This document shows, piece by piece, positions 3,880 through 17,881 of a stretch of 64,000 nucleotides of DNA. Origin of the DNA: Escherichia coli (GTDB lineage Bacteria > Pseudomonadota > Gammaproteobacteria > Enterobacterales > Enterobacteriaceae). Each line of letters opens with the position of its first letter. Position 1 is the stretch's first letter. A model generated the notes under the pieces. It was not told the origin of the DNA, did no database searches, and saw nothing but the letters and a program-made list of their open reading frames with translations. Location: the NCBI RefSeq assembly GCF_003334765.1, contig NZ_QOWT01000001.1, one strand, 5' to 3'. Made by a program: the position numbers and the translations under genes.

Positions 3880-5355
3880 ATGGCGGTAACGCAAACAGCC
3901 CAGGCCTGTGACCTGGTCATTTTCGGCGCGAAAGGCGACCTTGCGCGTCGTAAATTGCTGCCTTCCCTGTATCAACTGGAAAAAGCCGGTCAGCTCAACC
4001 CGGACACCCGGATTATCGGCGTAGGGCGTGCTGACTGGGATAAAGCGGCATATACCAAAGTTGTCCGCGAGGCGCTCGAAACTTTCATGAAAGAAACCAT
4101 TGATGAAGGTTTATGGGACACCCTGAGTGCACGTCTGGATTTTTGTAATCTCGATGTCAATGACACTGCTGCATTCAGCCGTCTCGGCGCGATGCTGGAT
4201 CAAAAAAATCGTATCACCATTAACTACTTTGCCATGCCGCCCAGCACTTTTGGCGCAATTTGCAAAGGGCTTGGCGAGGCAAAACTGAATGCTAAACCGG
4301 CACGCGTAGTCATGGAGAAACCGCTGGGGACGTCGCTGGCGACCTCGCAGGAAATCAATGATCAGGTTGGCGAATACTTCGAGGAGTGCCAGGTTTACCG
4401 TATCGACCACTATCTTGGTAAAGAAACGGTGCTGAACCTGTTGGCGCTGCGTTTTGCTAACTCCCTGTTTGTGAATAACTGGGACAATCGCACCATTGAT
4501 CATGTTGAGATTACCGTGGCAGAAGAAGTGGGGATCGAAGGGCGCTGGGGCTATTTTGATAAAGCCGGTCAGATGCGCGACATGATCCAGAACCACCTGC
4601 TGCAAATTCTTTGCATGATTGCGATGTCTCCGCCGTCTGACCTGAGCGCAGACAGCATCCGCGATGAAAAAGTGAAAGTACTGAAGTCTCTGCGCCGCAT
4701 CGACCGCTCCAACGTACGCGAAAAAACCGTACGCGGGCAATATACTGCGGGCTTCGCCCAGGGCAAAAAAGTGCCGGGATATCTGGAAGAAGAGGGCGCG
4801 AACAAGAGCAGCAATACAGAAACTTTCGTGGCGATCCGCGTCGACATTGATAACTGGCGCTGGGCCGGTGTGCCATTCTACCTGCGTACTGGTAAACGTC
4901 TGCCGACCAAATGTTCTGAAGTCGTGGTCTATTTCAAAACACCTGAACTGAATCTGTTTAAAGAATCGTGGCAGGATCTGCCGCAGAATAAACTGACTAT
5001 CCGTCTGCAACCTGATGAAGGCGTGGATATCCAGGTACTGAATAAAGTTCCTGGCCTTGACCACAAACATAACCTGCAAATCACCAAGCTGGATCTGAGC
5101 TATTCAGAAACCTTTAATCAGACGCATCTGGCGGATGCCTATGAACGTTTGCTGCTGGAAACCATGCGTGGTATTCAGGCACTGTTTGTACGTCGCGACG
5201 AAGTGGAAGAAGCCTGGAAATGGGTAGACTCCATTACTGAGGCGTGGGCGATGGACAATGATGCGCCGAAACCGTATCAGGCCGGAACCTGGGGACCCGT
5301 TGCCTCGGTGGCGATGATTACCCGTGATGGTCGTTCCTGGAATGAGTTTGAGTAA
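3880..5355 (+). CDS. zwf: glucose-6-phosphate 1-dehydrogenase
   Basis: ORF 491 aa ([34 protein letters not shown]...), canonical G6PD N-terminus, RBS aaggag upstream. Confidence 0.95.
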
Positions 5356-5434
5356 TATCTGCGCTTATCCTTTATGGTTATTTTACCGGTAACATGATCT
5401 TGCGCAGATTGTAGAACAATTTTTACACTTTCAG

Positions 5435-5468
5435 GCCTCGTGCGGATTCACCCACGAGGCTTTTTTTA
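5435..5468 (+). terminator. intrinsic terminator downstream of zwf
   Basis: stem gcctcgtg/cacgaggc followed by T7. Confidence 0.75.
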
Positions 5469-5589
5469 TTACACTGACTGAAACGTTTTTGCCCTATGAG
5501 CTCCGGTTACAGGCGTTTCAGTCATAAATCCTCTGAATGAAACGCGTTGTGAATCATCCTGCTCTGACAACTCAATTTCAGGAGCCTTT

Positions 5590-7401
5590 ATGAATCCACA
5601 ATTGTTACGCGTAACAAATCGAATCATTGAACGTTCGCGCGAGACTCGCTCTGCTTATCTCGCCCGGATAGAACAAGCGAAAACTTCGACCGTTCATCGT
5701 TCGCAGTTGGCATGCGGTAACCTGGCACACGGTTTCGCTGCCTGCCAGCCAGAAGACAAAGCCTCTTTGAAAAGCATGTTGCGTAACAATATCGCCATCA
5801 TCACCTCCTATAACGACATGCTCTCCGCGCACCAGCCTTATGAACACTATCCAGAAATCATTCGTAAAGCCCTGCATGAAGCGAATGCGGTTGGTCAGGT
5901 TGCGGGCGGTGTTCCGGCGATGTGTGATGGTGTCACCCAGGGGCAGGATGGAATGGAATTGTCGCTGCTAAGCCGCGAAGTGATAGCGATGTCTGCGGCG
6001 GTGGGGCTGTCCCATAACATGTTTGATGGTGCTCTGTTCCTCGGTGTGTGCGACAAGATTGTCCCGGGTCTGACGATGGCAGCCCTGTCGTTTGGTCATT
6101 TGCCTGCGGTGTTTGTGCCGTCTGGACCGATGGCAAGCGGTTTGCCAAATAAAGAAAAAGTGCGTATTCGCCAGCTTTATGCCGAAGGTAAAGTGGACCG
6201 CATGGCCTTACTGGAGTCAGAAGCCGCGTCTTACCATGCGCCGGGAACATGTACTTTCTACGGTACTGCCAACACCAACCAGATGGTGGTGGAGTTTATG
6301 GGGATGCAGTTGCCAGGCTCTTCTTTTGTTCATCCGGATTCTCCGCTGCGCGATGCTTTGACCGCCGCAGCTGCGCGTCAGGTTACACGCATGACCGGTA
6401 ATGGTAATGAATGGATGCCGATCGGTAAGATGATCGATGAGAAAGTGGTGGTGAACGGTATCGTTGCACTGCTGGCGACCGGTGGTTCCACTAACCACAC
6501 CATGCACCTGGTGGCGATGGCGCGCGCGGCCGGTATTCAGATTAACTGGGATGACTTCTCTGACCTTTCTGATGTTGTACCGCTGATGGCACGTCTCTAC
6601 CCGAACGGTCCGGCCGATATTAACCACTTCCAGGCGGCAGGTGGCGTACCGGTTCTGGTGCGTGAACTGCTCAAAGCAGGCCTGCTGCATGAAGATGTCA
6701 ATACGGTGGCAGGTTTTGGTCTGTCTCGTTATACCCTTGAACCATGGCTGAATAATGGTGAACTGGACTGGCGGGAAGGGGCGGAAAAATCACTCGACAG
6801 CAATGTGATCGCTTCCTTCGAACAACCTTTCTCTCATCATGGTGGGACAAAAGTGTTAAGCGGTAACCTGGGCCGTGCGGTTATGAAAACCTCTGCCGTG
6901 CCGGTTGAGAACCAGGTGATTGAAGCGCCAGCGGTTGTTTTTGAAAGCCAGCATGACGTTATGCCGGCCTTTGAAGCGGGTTTGCTGGACCGCGATTGTG
7001 TCGTTGTTGTCCGTCATCAGGGGCCAAAAGCGAACGGAATGCCAGAATTACATAAACTCATGCCGCCACTTGGTGTATTATTGGACCGGTGTTTCAAAAT
7101 TGCGTTAGTTACCGATGGACGACTCTCCGGCGCTTCAGGTAAAGTGCCGTCAGCTATCCACGTAACACCAGAAGCCTACGATGGCGGGCTGCTGGCAAAA
7201 GTGCGCGACGGGGACATCATTCGTGTGAATGGACAGACAGGCGAACTGACGCTGCTGGTAGACGAAGCGGAACTGGCTGCTCGCGAACCGCACATTCCTG
7301 ACCTGAGCGCGTCACGCGTGGGAACAGGACGTGAATTATTCAGCGCCTTGCGTGAAAAACTGTCCGGTGCCGAACAGGGCGCAACCTGTATCACTTTTTA
7401 A
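5590..7401 (+). CDS. edd: phosphogluconate dehydratase (Entner-Doudoroff)
   Basis: ORF 603 aa ([31 protein letters not shown]...), IlvD/Edd family. Confidence 0.95.
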
Positions 7402-14855: not shown

Positions 14856-15086
14856 TTATTTAAGTTTGGGCTCGTAAGGTAAACGTGACAGATTGACCGA
14901 AGCCAAACGGTGGGCAATAAGCCGCTCGCGAAACCAGCTGCGCAAATGTTCAGGCTGTTCACGTTCAACCGCTTCAGCGATCACCGGCATATTGTAGCGT
15001 TCTTTAAATGCCACCCCGGCCGCCGCCAAATCGACATTCACTTTATCCATTTCTGTTTGATCCAGTTTAGCCAGATTCTTCAGCAT
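14856..15086 (-). CDS. holE: DNA polymerase III theta subunit
   Basis: ORF-track frame 14856..15173; start placed at ATG 15084-15086 ([56 protein letters not shown]...) giving 76 aa. Confidence 0.88.
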
Positions 15087-15224
15087 TCTTAATCTCCTCA
15101 TCATTCGCGGGCAAAAGTTACTAAGAGTGAGCCAGGATGGCAAGCCGGAATTGATGATCCTCGACTCAGACATTAGACAAGGTTATGCTCTGTAAAAAAG
15201 TTATTACAAAAAGGAATAGATAAT

Positions 15225-15599
15225 ATGGCTTCAACTGCACGCTCCCTTCGCTACGCGCTGGCAATCCTGACCACTTCGTTGGTGACACCTTCCGTCTGGG
15301 CACATGCGCATTTAACGCATCAGTATCCTGCGGCAAACGCGCAAGTGACAGCTGCACCGCAGGCAATCACTTTAAACTTCTCGGAAGGTGTTGAAACAGG
15401 ATTCAGTGGTGCAAAAATCACGGGGCCAAAAAACGAAAATATTAAAACATTACCGGCGAAGCGAAATGAGCAGGACCAAAAGCAACTGATTGTTCCACTG
15501 GCCGATTCGCTGAAACCCGGAACCTACACCGTTGACTGGCATGTTGTTTCGGTGGACGGGCATAAAACGAAAGGACACTACACCTTTAGCGTGAAATAA
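15225..15599 (+). CDS. yobA: periplasmic copper-binding protein CopC-family (YobA)
   Basis: ORF 124 aa with signal peptide and HxH-containing CopC-like sequence (WAHAHLTHQYPAANAQV...). Confidence 0.88.
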   Translation: MASTARSLRYALAILTTSLVTPSVWAHAHLTHQYPAANAQVTAAPQAITLNFSEGVETGFSGAKITGPKNENIKTLPAKRNEQDQKQLIVPLADSLKPGTYTVDWHVVSVDGHKTKGHYTFSVK

Positions 15600-15602
15600 A
15601 TC

Positions 15603-16475
15603 ATGCTGGCGTTTACCTGGATCGCGCTGCGATTTATCCATTTCACCTCGCTGATGCTGGTTTTTGGCTTCGCAATGTACGGTGCCTGGCTGGCCCCCTT
15701 GACGATTCGTCGCTTGCTGGCGAAGCGTTTTCTGCGTTTACAACAGCACGCTGCCGTCTGGAGTTTGATCAGTGCCACTGCAATGCTCGCCGTTCAGGGC
15801 GGGTTGATGGGAACGGGATGGACAGATGTATTTTCGCCAAACATTTGGCAGGCTGTTTTGCAAACGCAGTTTGGTGGCATCTGGTTATGGCAAATTGTTC
15901 TCGCCCTCGTAACGTTGATCGTCGCCCTTATGCAACCGCGGAATATGCCACGTTTGCTGTTTATGCTCACTACCGCGCAATTTATTCTGCTGGCGGGAGT
16001 GGGGCATGCGACGCTGAATGAAGGGGTAACAGCGAAAATCCATCAGACTAATCACGCGATTCACCTGATTTGTGCGGCGGCGTGGTTTGGGGGATTACTG
16101 CCGGTGCTCTGGTGTATGCAACTCATCAAAGGCCGTTGGCGACACCAGGCTATTCAGGCGCTGATGCGTTTTTCCTGGTGCGGGCATTTTGCGGTGATCG
16201 GCGTACTGGCAAGCGGCGTGCTTAATGCATTGTTGATTACCGGATTTCCCCCCACGCTTACGACTTACTGGGGCCAACTCTTATTGCTCAAAGCCATCCT
16301 GGTGATGATTATGGTGGTCATTGCGCTGGCTAATCGTTATGTTCTTGTACCGCGCATGAGGCAGGATGAAGATCGTGCGGCACCCTGGTTTGTGTGGATG
16401 ACTAAACTCGAATGGGCGATAGGTGCGGTAGTGCTGGTGATCATCAGCCTGCTTGCGACTCTCGAACCTTTTTGA
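15603..16475 (+). CDS. yebZ: CopD-family inner-membrane protein (YebZ)
   Basis: ORF 290 aa, multi-pass hydrophobic, directly downstream of yobA (4-nt gap). Confidence 0.88.
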   Translation: MLAFTWIALRFIHFTSLMLVFGFAMYGAWLAPLTIRRLLAKRFLRLQQHAAVWSLISATAMLAVQGGLMGTGWTDVFSPNIWQAVLQTQFGGIWLWQIVLALVTLIVALMQPRNMPRLLFMLTTAQFILLAGVGHATLNEGVTAKIHQTNHAIHLICAAAWFGGLLPVLWCMQLIKGRWRHQAIQALMRFSWCGHFAVIGVLASGVLNALLITGFPPTLTTYWGQLLLLKAILVMIMVVIALANRYVLVPRMRQDEDRAAPWFVWMTKLEWAIGAVVLVIISLLATLEPF

Positions 16476-16487
16476 TGGATTACGAAA

Positions 16488-16829
16488 ATGATGAAAAAAA
16501 GTATTCTGGCGTTTCTGTTACTCACCAGTTCTGCAGCGGCGCTGGCTGCACCGCAGGTGATTACCGTCAGTCGTTTTGAAGTGGGTAAAGACAAATGGGC
16601 GTTTAATCGCGAAGAGGTGATGCTGACTTGCCGACCGGGTAATGCTTTGTATGTTATTAATCCGAGTACCCTCGTGCAGTATCCTTTAAACGATATCGCA
16701 CAAAAGGAAGTTGCCAGTGGGAAGACCAATGCCCAACCCATTTCGGTGATTCAGATTGATGATCCTAACAATCCCGGCGAAAAAATGAGTCTGGCACCGT
16801 TTATAGAACGAGCTGAAAAACTCTGTTAA
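16488..16829 (+). CDS. yebY: DUF2511 periplasmic protein YebY
   Basis: ORF 113 aa with signal peptide ([20 protein letters not shown]...), third gene of yobA-yebZ-yebY. Confidence 0.88.
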
Positions 16830-16868
16830 TTACCTAAAATAGCCTTTTGATTTCCAATAAAAAAACCG

Positions 16869-16910
16869 CCTCAGTTCTTTCACCAGAACGGGCGGTTTTT
16901 AACATTTCAG
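16869..16910. terminator. bidirectional intrinsic terminator (yebY 3' end / RyeA 3' end)
   Basis: stem ccgcc...ggcgg flanked by A7 upstream and T5 downstream. Confidence 0.6.
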
Positions 16911-16973
16911 CTGATGACCACCACGCTTTTTATTGACCATTTTGCACGCAAACTGGAAAACCTGGCGTCGTCA

Positions 16974-16981
16974 TCTATTCT
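16974..16981 (+). promoter_or_regulatory. sigma-S type -10 element of sdsR
   Basis: CTATTCTT resembles the sigma-S extended -10 (CTATACT), about 7 nt upstream of the inferred SdsR 5' end. Confidence 0.45.
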
Positions 16982-16987
16982 TAAAGG

Positions 16988-17090
16988 GCAAGGCAACTAA
17001 GCCTGCATTAATGCCAACTTTTAGCGCACGGCTCTCTCCCAAGAGCCATTTCCCTGGACCGAATACAGGAATCGTGTTCGGTCTCTTTTT
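16988..17090 (+). ncRNA. sdsR: small RNA SdsR (RyeB)
   Basis: GCAAGGCAACUAAGCCUGCAUUAAUGCC...ACCGAAUACAGGAAUCGUGUUCGGUCUCUUUUU matches my recollection of SdsR, ending in an intrinsic terminator. Confidence 0.8.
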
Positions 17091-17224
17091 ATCTGTTAAA
17101 AGCCAGAAGCATTTCCTTCGCTGACTTTATAGTCAACCATAACACACACTCTACTGTCTGAGTCCAGCGTTTTTTAACATTCTTGTTAAGATTATGTGAT
17201 CTTTAGCGCGGGAGGAAAATATTG

Positions 17225-17881
17225 ATGAAACAGCCTGCGCCCGTTTATCAGAGAATTGCGGGTCATCAATGGCGACATATCTGGCTTTCTGGCGATATAC
17301 ACGGTTGTCTTGAGCAGTTGCGCCGCAAATTATGGCATTGTCGTTTTGATCCGTGGCGAGATTTACTTATCTCAGTGGGAGACGTTATCGATCGTGGGCC
17401 GCAAAGTTTACGTTGTCTGCAGTTACTGGAACAACATTGGGTTTGTGCGGTAAGAGGCAATCATGAACAGATGGCGATGGATGCGCTGGCATCCCAGCAG
17501 ATGTCTTTGTGGTTGATGAATGGCGGCGACTGGTTTATTGCGCTGGCAGATAATCAACAGAAACAAGCGAAAACGGCGCTGGAAAAATGTCAGCATTTGC
17601 CCTTTATTCTTGAAGTACACAGTCGCACCGGCAAGCATGTTATTGCTCATGCCGATTATCCAGATGATGTTTATGAATGGCAAAAGGACGTTGATTTGCA
17701 TCAGGTCTTGTGGAGCCGCTCGCGATTAGGTGAACGCCAAAAAGGGCAGGGAATTACAGGTGCTGATCATTTCTGGTTTGGTCATACACCGTTGCGACAT
17801 CGCGTGGATATTGGCAACCTGCATTATATTGATACCGGTGCTGTCTTTGGGGGCGAACTGACTCTTGTGCAATTGCAATAA
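17225..17881 (+). CDS. pphA: serine/threonine protein phosphatase 1 (PrpA)
   Basis: ORF-track from TTG 17222; ATG at 17225 (MKQPAPVYQRIAGHQWRHIWLSGDIHGC...) gives 218 aa; metallophosphoesterase GDxHG and GNHE motifs. Confidence 0.9.
   Translation: MKQPAPVYQRIAGHQWRHIWLSGDIHGCLEQLRRKLWHCRFDPWRDLLISVGDVIDRGPQSLRCLQLLEQHWVCAVRGNHEQMAMDALASQQMSLWLMNGGDWFIALADNQQKQAKTALEKCQHLPFILEVHSRTGKHVIAHADYPDDVYEWQKDVDLHQVLWSRSRLGERQKGQGITGADHFWFGHTPLRHRVDIGNLHYIDTGAVFGGELTLVQLQ

Follow-up and report, generated by a model that had tools for sequence, protein, structure and literature searches.

The AZY locus and its three genes

The window, that is, the whole 64,000 nucleotide stretch of Escherichia coli DNA that was analysed, carries three consecutive genes on one strand, yobA, yebZ and yebY (Table 1). 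The earlier note had described them as tightly packed, with gaps of 4 nt and 12 nt. Three close genes of the same orientation were indeed found, and yebZ and yebY are separated by 12 nt (TGGATTACGAAA), but the ORF coordinates leave only 3 nt (ATC) between yobA and yebZ. A 2151 bp segment matched E. coli K-12 MG1655 at 100% identity and was found in every one of the 5426 complete E. coli genomes. In the RefSeq annotation of the identical MG1655 record the genes are named yobA, copD and yebY, with ptrB, exoX, yobB and holE upstream and pphA, yebW, yebV and rsmF downstream. The locus is thus the known chromosomal yobA–yebZ–yebY (AZY) operon of E. coli K-12. Hadley et al. (2021/22; PMC8689200) have already described this operon, as have Palmer et al. 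(2025; PMC11923076), and a crystal structure of YebY is available. The operon of those reports is the same locus without any difference, and all residues named there are present here.

The dN/dS ratio was at most 0.16 for yobA, yebZ and yebY, indicating purifying selection on all three; because dS was saturated in comparisons with Citrobacter, only dN and the comparisons within Escherichia are informative. An ORF antisense to the genes (16337-16741, − strand) and the other overlapping ORFs were rejected as chance ORFs within real genes.

Table 1. Genes, RNAs and regulatory features of the AZY region (positions in the window).
Feature	Position	Strand	Description and basis
holE-yobA divergent intergenic region	15087-15224	+	138 bp; yobA promoter and 5' leader, Shine-Dalgarno AAGGAA; MG1655 annotation and sequence
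Predicted FnrS pairing site	15185-15227		spans yobA ribosome-binding site and start codon; duplex computation
yobA	15225-15599	+	124 aa; ORF listing and translation
yebZ	15603-16475	+	290 aa; ORF listing and translation
yebY	16488-16829	+	113 aa; ORF listing and translation
G+C-rich palindromic hairpin	16861-16900	both	A-run and T-run on flanks; RNA folds
RyeA/SraC	16950-17094	−	antisense to SdsR; Rfam RF00101 core, 175.1 bits (gathering 37), E 2.7e-41
SdsR/RyeB	16991-17090	+	sigma-S-dependent sRNA; Rfam RF00111, 114.4 bits (gathering 38), E 1.7e-22

YobA is a CopC-type and YebZ a CopD-type protein

The earlier note had assigned the first two genes to the CopC and CopD families and linked them to copper, and profile matches confirmed this. 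YobA matched Pfam CopC (PF04234; residues 27-123, E 1.5e-27) and scored above the cut-offs of the NCBIfam equivalogs for YobA (264.6 bits, cut-off 129) and CopC (141 bits, cut-off 95). Its relatives in the PDB are CopC, PcoC and the CopC domain of YcnJ (E 5e-18 to 2e-10). The sequence reads PSVWA|HAH at the predicted signal peptide junction, and cleavage after VWA would place His27 at the amino terminus; mature YobA of ∼11 kDa has been purified from the periplasm (PMC8689200). His27, Asp111 and His113 are present and, among 60 homologous loci, were invariant in 59-60. The sole Met in YobA is the initiator, so that the Met-rich Cu(I) site is absent, and 49 of the 60 homologues have no Met in the mature part. 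Because there is no Met beyond the initiator, YobA is, as judged from its sequence, a member of the Cu2+-only (C0-2) class of CopC. In isothermal titration calorimetry, YobA bound Cu2+ with a Kd of ∼3 nM and did not bind Cu+ (PMC8689200).

YebZ matched the NCBIfam CopD equivalog NF033808 over residues 4-290 (298 bits, cut-off 195) and Pfam CopD (PF05425; E 1.5e-26), and its predicted character is that of a CopD-type polytopic inner-membrane protein. A Kyte–Doolittle scan at a threshold of 1.5 gave twelve overlapping peaks, which correspond to six or seven hydrophobic segments once merged. These hydropathy-derived segments are compatible with the eight transmembrane helices stated for YebZ (PMC11923076). 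A further weak hydrophobic segment near residues 52-70 was read by eye. His135 and His154, the two histidines that face the periplasm in CopD proteins, are both present; 61-62 of 63 loci conserve them, and the remaining cases lie outside the aligned segment. A sequence search of solved structures found no relative of YebZ.

YebY is a periplasmic DUF2511 protein of known structure

YebY matched Pfam DUF2511 (PF10709; E 2.4e-45), and its residues 21-113 are identical to the PDB entry 7N0J, ‘YebY’ (E 3.9e-59), a crystal structure at 1.8 Å (PMC8689200). The sequence begins with a hydrophobic signal peptide of ∼20 aa, and the protein is periplasmic with a Cys48–Cys113 disulfide (PMC8689200). Trp37, Cys48 and Cys113 were invariant in 64 of 64 loci. 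Copper binding by YebY is weak; Cu+ and Cu2+ were bound only by the reduced protein, with a Kd for Cu+ of 50-100 μM (PMC8689200). The view of the earlier note that yebY has no assigned role is out of date, given its published structure, periplasmic location, contribution to NDH-2 activity and damping of copper accumulation through YebZ. A pull-down or co-purification of YebY with YobA or YebZ was found in neither PMC8689200 nor PMC11923076.

Control of expression at the two ends of the operon

The operon is repressed by the small RNA FnrS under anaerobiosis (PMC8689200). The FnrS sequence was confirmed in E. coli genomes and with Rfam RF01796 (134.8 bits). Its single-stranded part gave a computed duplex of −23.6 kcal/mol with the predicted pairing site; this energy was reached by 0 of 200 shuffles and was equalled by 2.7% of 60-nt windows across the 64 kb. 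Two copper-box-like sites have been described upstream of the operon, at −34 and −22 (PMC8689200). A scan for consensus sigma-70 promoters upstream of yobA found none.

Downstream of yebY, the palindromic hairpin folds on both strands, with −19.8 kcal/mol and a z of −4.65 for the + strand and −22.7 kcal/mol and a z of −3.09 for the − strand; it was missed by a simple terminator scan and was seen by folding. It is probably a bidirectional intrinsic terminator, serving yobA–yebZ–yebY on the + strand and RyeA on the − strand. The earlier note had placed the SdsR/RyeA pair immediately downstream, and Rfam located both there, overlapping on opposite strands. SdsR begins 162 nt past the yebY stop codon and has its own terminator at 17056-17084 (terminator scan). 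It lies beside the operon without belonging to it. RyeA is ∼270 nt long with a Rho-independent 3' end (PMC6610125), and the ryeA +10 primer of that report maps to 17120-17139. From this length and this position, taken with the hairpin fold, the 3' end of RyeA would lie near 16860, and full-length RyeA would probably extend from about 17129 down to that point.

Conservation of the operon in Enterobacterales

The comparative set comprised ∼60 Enterobacterales loci (65 in the blastn check for sdsR), retrieved with patterns derived from YebY. Full-length matches to YobA, YebZ, YebY and HolE were obtained in 50 loci, and in 49 of these the genes are collinear in the order yobA–yebZ–yebY, so that AZY-like order is kept across Enterobacterales, well beyond E. 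coli. yobA and yebZ adjoin in nearly all of the loci. In 40 of the 49 collinear loci yebZ and yebY are 15-23 nt apart; for the other nine the distance is 45-166 nt, the longest (about 100-166 nt) being found in Yersinia and Photorhabdus. A fixed order has also been reported more broadly, with ∼52% of DUF2511 genes in AZY-like contexts (PMC8689200). By blastn, sdsR adjoined yebY in 63 of 65 loci, and Rfam recovered it in one of the two misses (L068); SdsR and RyeA were both found by Rfam beside yebY in Dickeya, Yersinia and Proteus. A previous study likewise reported sdsR downstream of yebY in all cases (PMC3333887).

Of the three proteins, YebY showed the highest conservation. Its median identity to the K-12 protein was 79%, against 58% and 53% for its partners, and it exceeded YobA and YebZ in 50 of 50 loci; dN was ∼0.09 for yebY and ∼0.22 for the partner genes. 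Part of this apparent conservation reflects ascertainment, since the loci were retrieved with YebY-derived patterns, and HolE, which was not used in the retrieval, was even more conserved (87%).

yebY was also found apart from its partners. It was kept beside sdsR in one locus in which yobA–yebZ is displaced (L052), in another in which yobA–yebZ was not found within 5 kb (L058), in two from which yobA is missing (L053 and L054) and in three in which yebZ looks frameshifted (L022, L047 and L061). In Dickeya it persists without adjacent yobA–yebZ, and in Dickeya oryzae no such pair was found within 5 kb of it. Outside cellular loci, YebY matched the PHROG family phrog_2950 (E 1.1e-29). Paralogues of ∼112 aa with 31-34% identity to YebY occur in PSP3-like Peduoviridae phages; they carry a signal peptide and the conserved Trp37, Cys48, YPLN motif and C-terminal Cys. 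In these phages, and in a matching prophage, the gene lies in the lysogeny operon between cI and int. The phage gene (PSP3 gp28/phrog_2950) differs from yebY in this position between repressor and integrase and in having no CopC or CopD gene nearby. A profile of YebY and its phage homologues matched the DUF2511 protein MlbQ (2MVO) weakly, as the second-best PDB match (E 0.039). Taken together, the stronger conservation of YebY, its persistence without yobA–yebZ and its occurrence in phage lysogeny operons suggest that it has a YebZ-independent role.

Published phenotypes of AZY mutants

Copper assays like those that the earlier note proposed are already in the literature. Single and triple deletions had no copper-tolerance phenotype between 0 and 2 mM; AZY deletions had no oxidant phenotype either, and overexpression of AZY did not rescue a copA-deficient strain (PMC8689200). 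In the uptake assay, by contrast, a copA-lux reporter indicated 3-4 fold lower copper entry in the triple deletion, single deletions being unaffected (PMC11923076). The operon therefore does have a copper-related phenotype, in uptake.

Overexpression of YebZ raised cellular copper; the effect was specific to copper and was seen only with glucose. The H135A substitution lowered this uptake and H154A abolished it, and co-expression with YebZ of YobA raised uptake, while that of YebY lowered it (PMC11923076). Activation of mar was down by 80-90% in the triple deletion, and the operon is needed for the copper-dependent activation of mar (PMC11923076). The triple deletion was also more sensitive to norfloxacin, ciprofloxacin and ampicillin, an effect that the chelator TETA mimicked in the wild type only (PMC11923076).

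A further phenotype concerns respiration. NDH-2 activity was reduced in the yobA, yebY and triple deletions and unchanged in the yebZ deletion; membranes of the three affected strains oxidized less NADH despite normal amounts of NDH-2 protein, and a plasmid restored the activity (PMC8689200). This positive contribution of yebY to NDH-2 activity is inconsistent with YebY being a pure inhibitor.

A probable role in copper acquisition

We consider it likely that AZY is a system for copper acquisition, not resistance, in which YobA feeds the importer YebZ and YebY attenuates the import. YobA would be exported to the periplasm, where removal of its signal peptide would expose His27. The mature protein would hold one Cu2+ at nanomolar affinity through its amino terminus, the His27 imidazole, Asp111 and His113. 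YobA may then dock on the periplasmic face of YebZ and hand its copper to His135 and His154, and YebZ would carry it to the cytoplasm in an energy-dependent step. Copper arriving there would reach CueR and oxidize MarR, which would relieve repression of the mar multidrug-resistance regulon. YobA and, to a lesser degree, YebY would also support NDH-2, a membrane enzyme that depends on copper. YebY is envisaged as a safety valve that attenuates import through YebZ, the most plausible mechanism being competition with YobA for YebZ.

The gaps of 3 and 12 nt may allow translational coupling of the three genes, and FnrS, by pairing with the ribosome-binding site and start codon of yobA, would switch the operon off anaerobically. 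Transcription would stop at the bidirectional hairpin shared with the convergent RyeA.

A parallel to such an importer is Bacillus subtilis YcnJ, in which, as in AZY, a CopC domain and a CopD membrane domain serve copper acquisition, a parallel drawn in PMC11923076. The CopC domain of YcnJ (9C14) matched YobA with an E-value of 2.4e-10. Unlike YobA and YebZ, YcnJ is one fused polypeptide in a Gram-positive host; its accessory protein is YcnI (DUF1775) instead of a DUF2511 protein, and its regulators are YcnK and CsoR instead of FnrS.

Alternative roles of the operon and of YebY

Several observations weigh against the importer model. The evidence for uptake comes largely from overexpression and reporter assays, the deletion of yebZ leaves NDH-2 activity unchanged (PMC8689200), and the comparative data suggest that YebY has a role not dependent on YebZ. 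The 2021 paper proposed another role, in which the AZY products act as metallochaperones that deliver copper in the periplasm to membrane cuproproteins such as NDH-2, and not as a cytoplasmic importer, with YobA and YebY doing the work and YebZ as an accessory (PMC8689200). In favour of this, NDH-2 activity falls without either of the two periplasmic proteins but not without YebZ, and YobA is a high-affinity, Cu2+-specific binder (PMC8689200). However, the glucose-dependent and copper-specific accumulation obtained with YebZ, lost in H154A, and the reduced sensing of copper in the cytoplasm of the triple deletion (PMC11923076) are at odds with a system confined to the periplasm, and we regard this as the operon's main role only as a minority possibility. 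The two roles are compatible, and the 2025 model includes both (PMC11923076). A copper-resistance determinant of the kind found in plasmid Pco or in Pseudomonas CopABCD, which sequesters copper or shuttles it for oxidation and export, is in turn very improbable, and was in effect already refuted by the published tolerance assays. AZY resembles PcoC/PcoD and Pseudomonas syringae CopC/CopD in having adjacent genes of the same two families, CopC then CopD, and YobA matched PcoC (1LYQ/1IX2; E 1.5e-14) and P. syringae-type CopC (1M42; E 2.3e-11); the copper-box-like sequences upstream (PMC8689200) would also suit such a function. AZY differs from these systems in its extra DUF2511 gene. No copA/pcoA multicopper oxidase, copB/pcoB or two-component regulator is present among the annotated neighbours, the Met-rich site is absent from YobA, and the deletions tolerate copper like the wild type, with no rescue of the copA-deficient strain by AZY (PMC8689200). 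YebY is, moreover, absent from genuine plasmids. It matched 11 of 72,556 plasmid records, of which nine exceed 400 kb and six exceed 1 Mb, and most are probably chromosomal sequence; with so few matches, most of them in very large records, there is no link to pco/cop plasmids.

A separate question is whether copper handling is the primary job of YebY at all, its effect on YebZ being secondary or an artefact of overexpression. We judge this unlikely, although several observations point towards it. YebY shares its fold, its Pfam family and the position of its disulfide with MlbQ, a protein of self-resistance to the lantibiotic NAI-107 in Microbispora (PMC8689200), even if the profile match is weak. 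Its affinity for copper is only micromolar and requires that a structural disulfide be broken (PMC8689200). It has the lowest dN of the three proteins, it is kept by sdsR where its partners are displaced, not found nearby, missing or frameshifted-looking, and its paralogues lie in a cI–DUF2511–int lysogeny operon. Against this, about half of DUF2511 genes occur in the fixed-order AZY-like contexts and deletion of yebY lowers NDH-2 activity (PMC8689200), co-expression of YebY specifically lowers copper uptake by YebZ (PMC11923076), and the conservation of YebY partly reflects how the loci were retrieved, with HolE scoring higher still. MlbQ itself is an actinomycete lipoprotein with a long unstructured linker, unlike YebY, and is encoded with lantibiotic-immunity ABC transporters, with no link to copper or CopCD. 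In its most general form, the idea would make YebY/DUF2511 an autonomous periplasmic module with a main function independent of YobA and YebZ, which became attached to enterobacterial CopCD and was captured separately by PSP3-like phages; we put this forward as a speculative suggestion. By analogy with MlbQ, YebY could bind or block a target in the envelope or inner membrane, and the phage DUF2511 gene between cI and int would, if DUF2511 is such a module, be a lysogenic-conversion gene.

Implications

Copper acquisition through YobA and YebZ, with attenuation by YebY, remains the role that we favour for AZY. The operon matters as the first specific importer of copper into the E. coli cytoplasm to be described, one that ties copper entry to mar-dependent multidrug resistance (PMC11923076). 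Our analysis adds nothing for the operon as a whole; its additions are small comparative observations, mainly on YebY. The constraint on YebY, its retention without its partners and its phage paralogues could guide work on its molecular action. If DUF2511 proteins are autonomous modules, the ‘safety valve’ on copper import would be a single instance of some broader activity, and the copy carried by phages could change the physiology of copper, mar or the envelope in the host, or keep something out of the periplasm.

Organization of the AZY operon

The three plus-strand genes yobA, yebZ and yebY (the AZY operon) were found by the six-frame ORF list and direct translation exactly where an earlier note, made from sequence, had placed them. 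The yebZ–yebY gap is 12 nt (TGGATTACGAAA), as that note had it; the yobA–yebZ gap is 3 nt (ATC), so that the 4 nt given for it was off by one. RefSeq names the trio yobA, copD and yebY, with holE divergent upstream and pphA downstream. By megablast, the segment 15100–17250 matches E. coli K-12 MG1655 at 100% identity, and all 5426 complete E. coli genomes carry it. The antisense sRNA pair SdsR/RyeA, described as lying immediately downstream, was recovered there by Rfam, SdsR starting 162 nt past the yebY stop codon. The arrangement is thus confirmed, and the operon is already known. At two neighbouring genes the longest ORF differed from the annotation: pphA (17222–17881) can be read from a TTG at 17222 versus the annotated ATG at 17225, and holE (14856–15173) from 15173, giving 105 aa, versus the annotated 76 aa from 15086.

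Features of the AZY locus in the window, and DUF2511 paralogues on phage and prophage contigs (L-numbers, comparative loci)
Feature	Position	Strand	Basis or remark
yobA	15225-15599	+	124 aa; six-frame ORF list and direct translation
yebZ	15603-16475	+	290 aa; six-frame ORF list and direct translation
yebY	16488-16829	+	113 aa; six-frame ORF list and direct translation
G+C-rich palindromic hairpin	16861-16900	both	fold; A-run on one side, T-run on the other
SdsR/RyeB	16991-17090	+	Rfam, far over gathering score
SraC/RyeA	17094-16950	-	Rfam, far over gathering score
DUF2511 paralogue (PSP3 gp28)	L002:3405-3743
DUF2511 paralogue	L003:2908-3246
DUF2511 paralogue	L004:2908-3246
DUF2511 paralogue	L070:5001-5336

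Matches to Pfam and NCBIfam families bore out the CopC-like and CopD-like assignments of the first two products. YobA matched Pfam CopC and the NCBIfam YobA and CopC equivalogs, and its solved relatives are CopC, PcoC and the CopC domain of YcnJ. On inspection, its signal peptide ends in VWA and is followed by His27; the protein carries Asp111 and His113, and its sole methionine is the initiator. As judged from sequence, this pattern is the signature of the Cu2+-only class of CopC proteins. YebZ scored 298 bits against the NCBIfam CopD equivalog (cut-off 195) and also matched Pfam CopD; its sequence shows six or seven strongly hydrophobic stretches, and possibly one further weak one, and it has His135 and His154. 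A sequence search found no solved structure for it. YebY matched Pfam DUF2511, and its residues 21–113 are identical to PDB 7N0J, deposited as YebY. The named ligand residues of the three proteins are invariant across the comparative loci.

Conservation of gene order and of the SdsR neighbourhood

Contigs were scanned with an alignment that combined YebY with three phage homologues, which gave 65 loci across the Enterobacterales. Of the 50 loci in which YobA, YebZ, YebY and HolE were all matched over their full length, yobA-yebZ-yebY was collinear in 49. The yebZ–yebY spacing was 15–23 nt in 40 of the 49 and 45–166 nt in the other nine, the widest (about 100–166 nt) being in Yersinia and Photorhabdus (L056–L067), where there is room enough for a separate yebY promoter. 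SdsR adjoined yebY in 63 of the 65 loci by blastn, and in one of the two misses (L068) it was found by Rfam, in agreement with Fröhlich et al. (PMC3333887), who place sdsR downstream of yebY in every case.

In Dickeya undicola (L052) yobA-yebZ is inverted and lies 3 kb downstream, and in Dickeya oryzae (L058) no yobA-yebZ was detected within 5 kb of yebY; in both, yebY is still directly upstream of SdsR/RyeA by Rfam (around 5001–5600). The yebY–sdsR adjacency therefore outlasts the yebZ–yebY adjacency in this sample. No YobA match was obtained in L053, where holE and yebZ are separated by about 310 nt, or in Pantoea sp. A4 (L054), where the separation is only about 180 nt. The YebZ match was split into pieces in Leclercia sp. 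29361, Kluyvera genomosp. 3 and Photorhabdus sp. CRCIA-P01 (L022, L047 and L061), which suggests a frameshift, pseudogene or assembly error. All five loci keep yebY beside SdsR/RyeA. Separately, a segment of ~250 bp holding SdsR/RyeA is inverted relative to yebY between Yersinia pekkanenii (L056:5441–5687) and Y. thracica (L057:2828–3074), with Rfam strands swapped and 84% blastn identity in reverse orientation; in Y. pekkanenii SdsR points towards yebY.

YebY conservation and phage paralogues

Median identity to K-12 was 79% for YebY, 58% for YobA and 53% for YebZ, and YebY exceeded the other two in 50 of 50 loci, a conservation that retrieval by a YebY pattern may inflate somewhat. The neighbour HolE is conserved more than YebY (median 87%). 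Against Citrobacter, yebY had a dN of about 0.09 and yobA and yebZ one of about 0.22, with dN/dS ≤ 0.16 for all three.

YebY also matched phrog_2950, and DUF2511 paralogues were found in PSP3-like Peduoviridae phages, in the lysogeny operon between the cI repressor and the integrase. They are 31–34% identical to YebY and keep the signal peptide, Trp37, Cys48, YPLN and the C-terminal Cys. An Enterobacter sp. MGH 24 prophage carries one on the same contig as the strain's AZY-type yebY (L013). Their position is typical of a lysogenic-conversion gene, a putative role. Hadley et al. (PMC8689200) noted in passing that some YebY genes have a 'XerD / CI repressor' context. YebY was essentially absent from genuine plasmids in a plasmid search, which indicates that it is not part of the mobile pco/cop clusters.

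Function of the operon

The earlier note held that yebY has no assigned role, which is outdated, and proposed copper assays that are already in print. YobA binds one Cu2+ (Kd about 3 nM) and no Cu+; YebY is a periplasmic monomer with a Cys48–Cys113 disulfide, which when reduced binds Cu+ weakly (50–100 uM); and AZY-like contexts hold about 52% of DUF2511 genes (PMC8689200). Copper-induced copA-lux was 3–4 fold lower in the triple deletion, single deletions being without effect (Palmer et al., PMC11923076). Overexpression of YebZ raised cellular copper, specifically and only with glucose; H135A cut and H154A abolished uptake, and co-expressed YobA increased it while YebY decreased it. Activation of mar, and resistance to norfloxacin, ciprofloxacin and ampicillin, depended on the operon and copper (PMC11923076).

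We consider the published model the best supported one and probably correct. Periplasmic Cu2+ would be captured by YobA and handed to YebZ, imported via His135 and His154, with import attenuated by YebY (the 'safety valve' of PMC11923076); FnrS would shut off the operon anaerobically, and the imported copper would reach CueR and MarR. The interpretation in the note is partly supported and superseded by the literature. The weaknesses of the model are that its support rests on overexpression and reporter assays, that no single deletion shows an effect in the reporter, and that the YebY effect on NDH-2 is opposite in sign. NDH-2 activity is down in the yobA, yebY and triple deletions, and not in the yebZ deletion (PMC8689200).

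Delivery of periplasmic copper to membrane cuproproteins, which is compatible with import, is a tentative alternative. A copper-independent primary role for YebY seems rather unlikely. Neither PMC8689200 nor PMC11923076 reports physical interaction of YebY with YobA or YebZ. YebY conservation, yebY retention and the phage paralogues speak for a YebZ-independent role of DUF2511 but fall short of establishing it. Conservation, retention near SdsR and the phage paralogues take the matter slightly beyond the two papers. Copper resistance of the Pco/Cop type is highly improbable, being contradicted by the genes neighbouring the operon in RefSeq, by the absence of a Cu(I) site from YobA and by normal copper tolerance in single and triple deletions, whose peroxide and paraquat sensitivity is also normal (PMC8689200).

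Predicted pairing with FnrS and a probable shared terminator

The mar regulon raises AcrAB-TolC efflux. A well-known SdsR target is tolC, activated by an sdsR promoter mutation (PMC6610125); that SdsR adjoins the mar-activating AZY operon is a thematic coincidence and speculation only, and nothing was found that ties SdsR–tolC functionally to AZY–mar.

The FnrS sRNA represses the operon (PMC8689200). Its sequence was verified by matching it to E. coli genomes and to Rfam RF01796. The computed duplex of its central region with 15185–15227, which spans the yobA Shine-Dalgarno sequence and start codon, is −23.6 kcal/mol, a value reached by none of 200 shuffles and equalled by only 2.7% of windows across the 64 kb; computed pairing was far poorer at the yebZ and yebY start regions.

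The hairpin downstream of yebY begins 32 nt past its stop codon. RyeA is about 270 nt long with a Rho-independent end, and the published ryeA +10 primer (PMC6610125) maps to 17120–17139. Given these data and the fold on both strands, the hairpin is probably a bidirectional terminator common to the AZY transcript and the convergent RyeA. If so, the 3' ends of the two RNAs would be complementary over about 40 nt.
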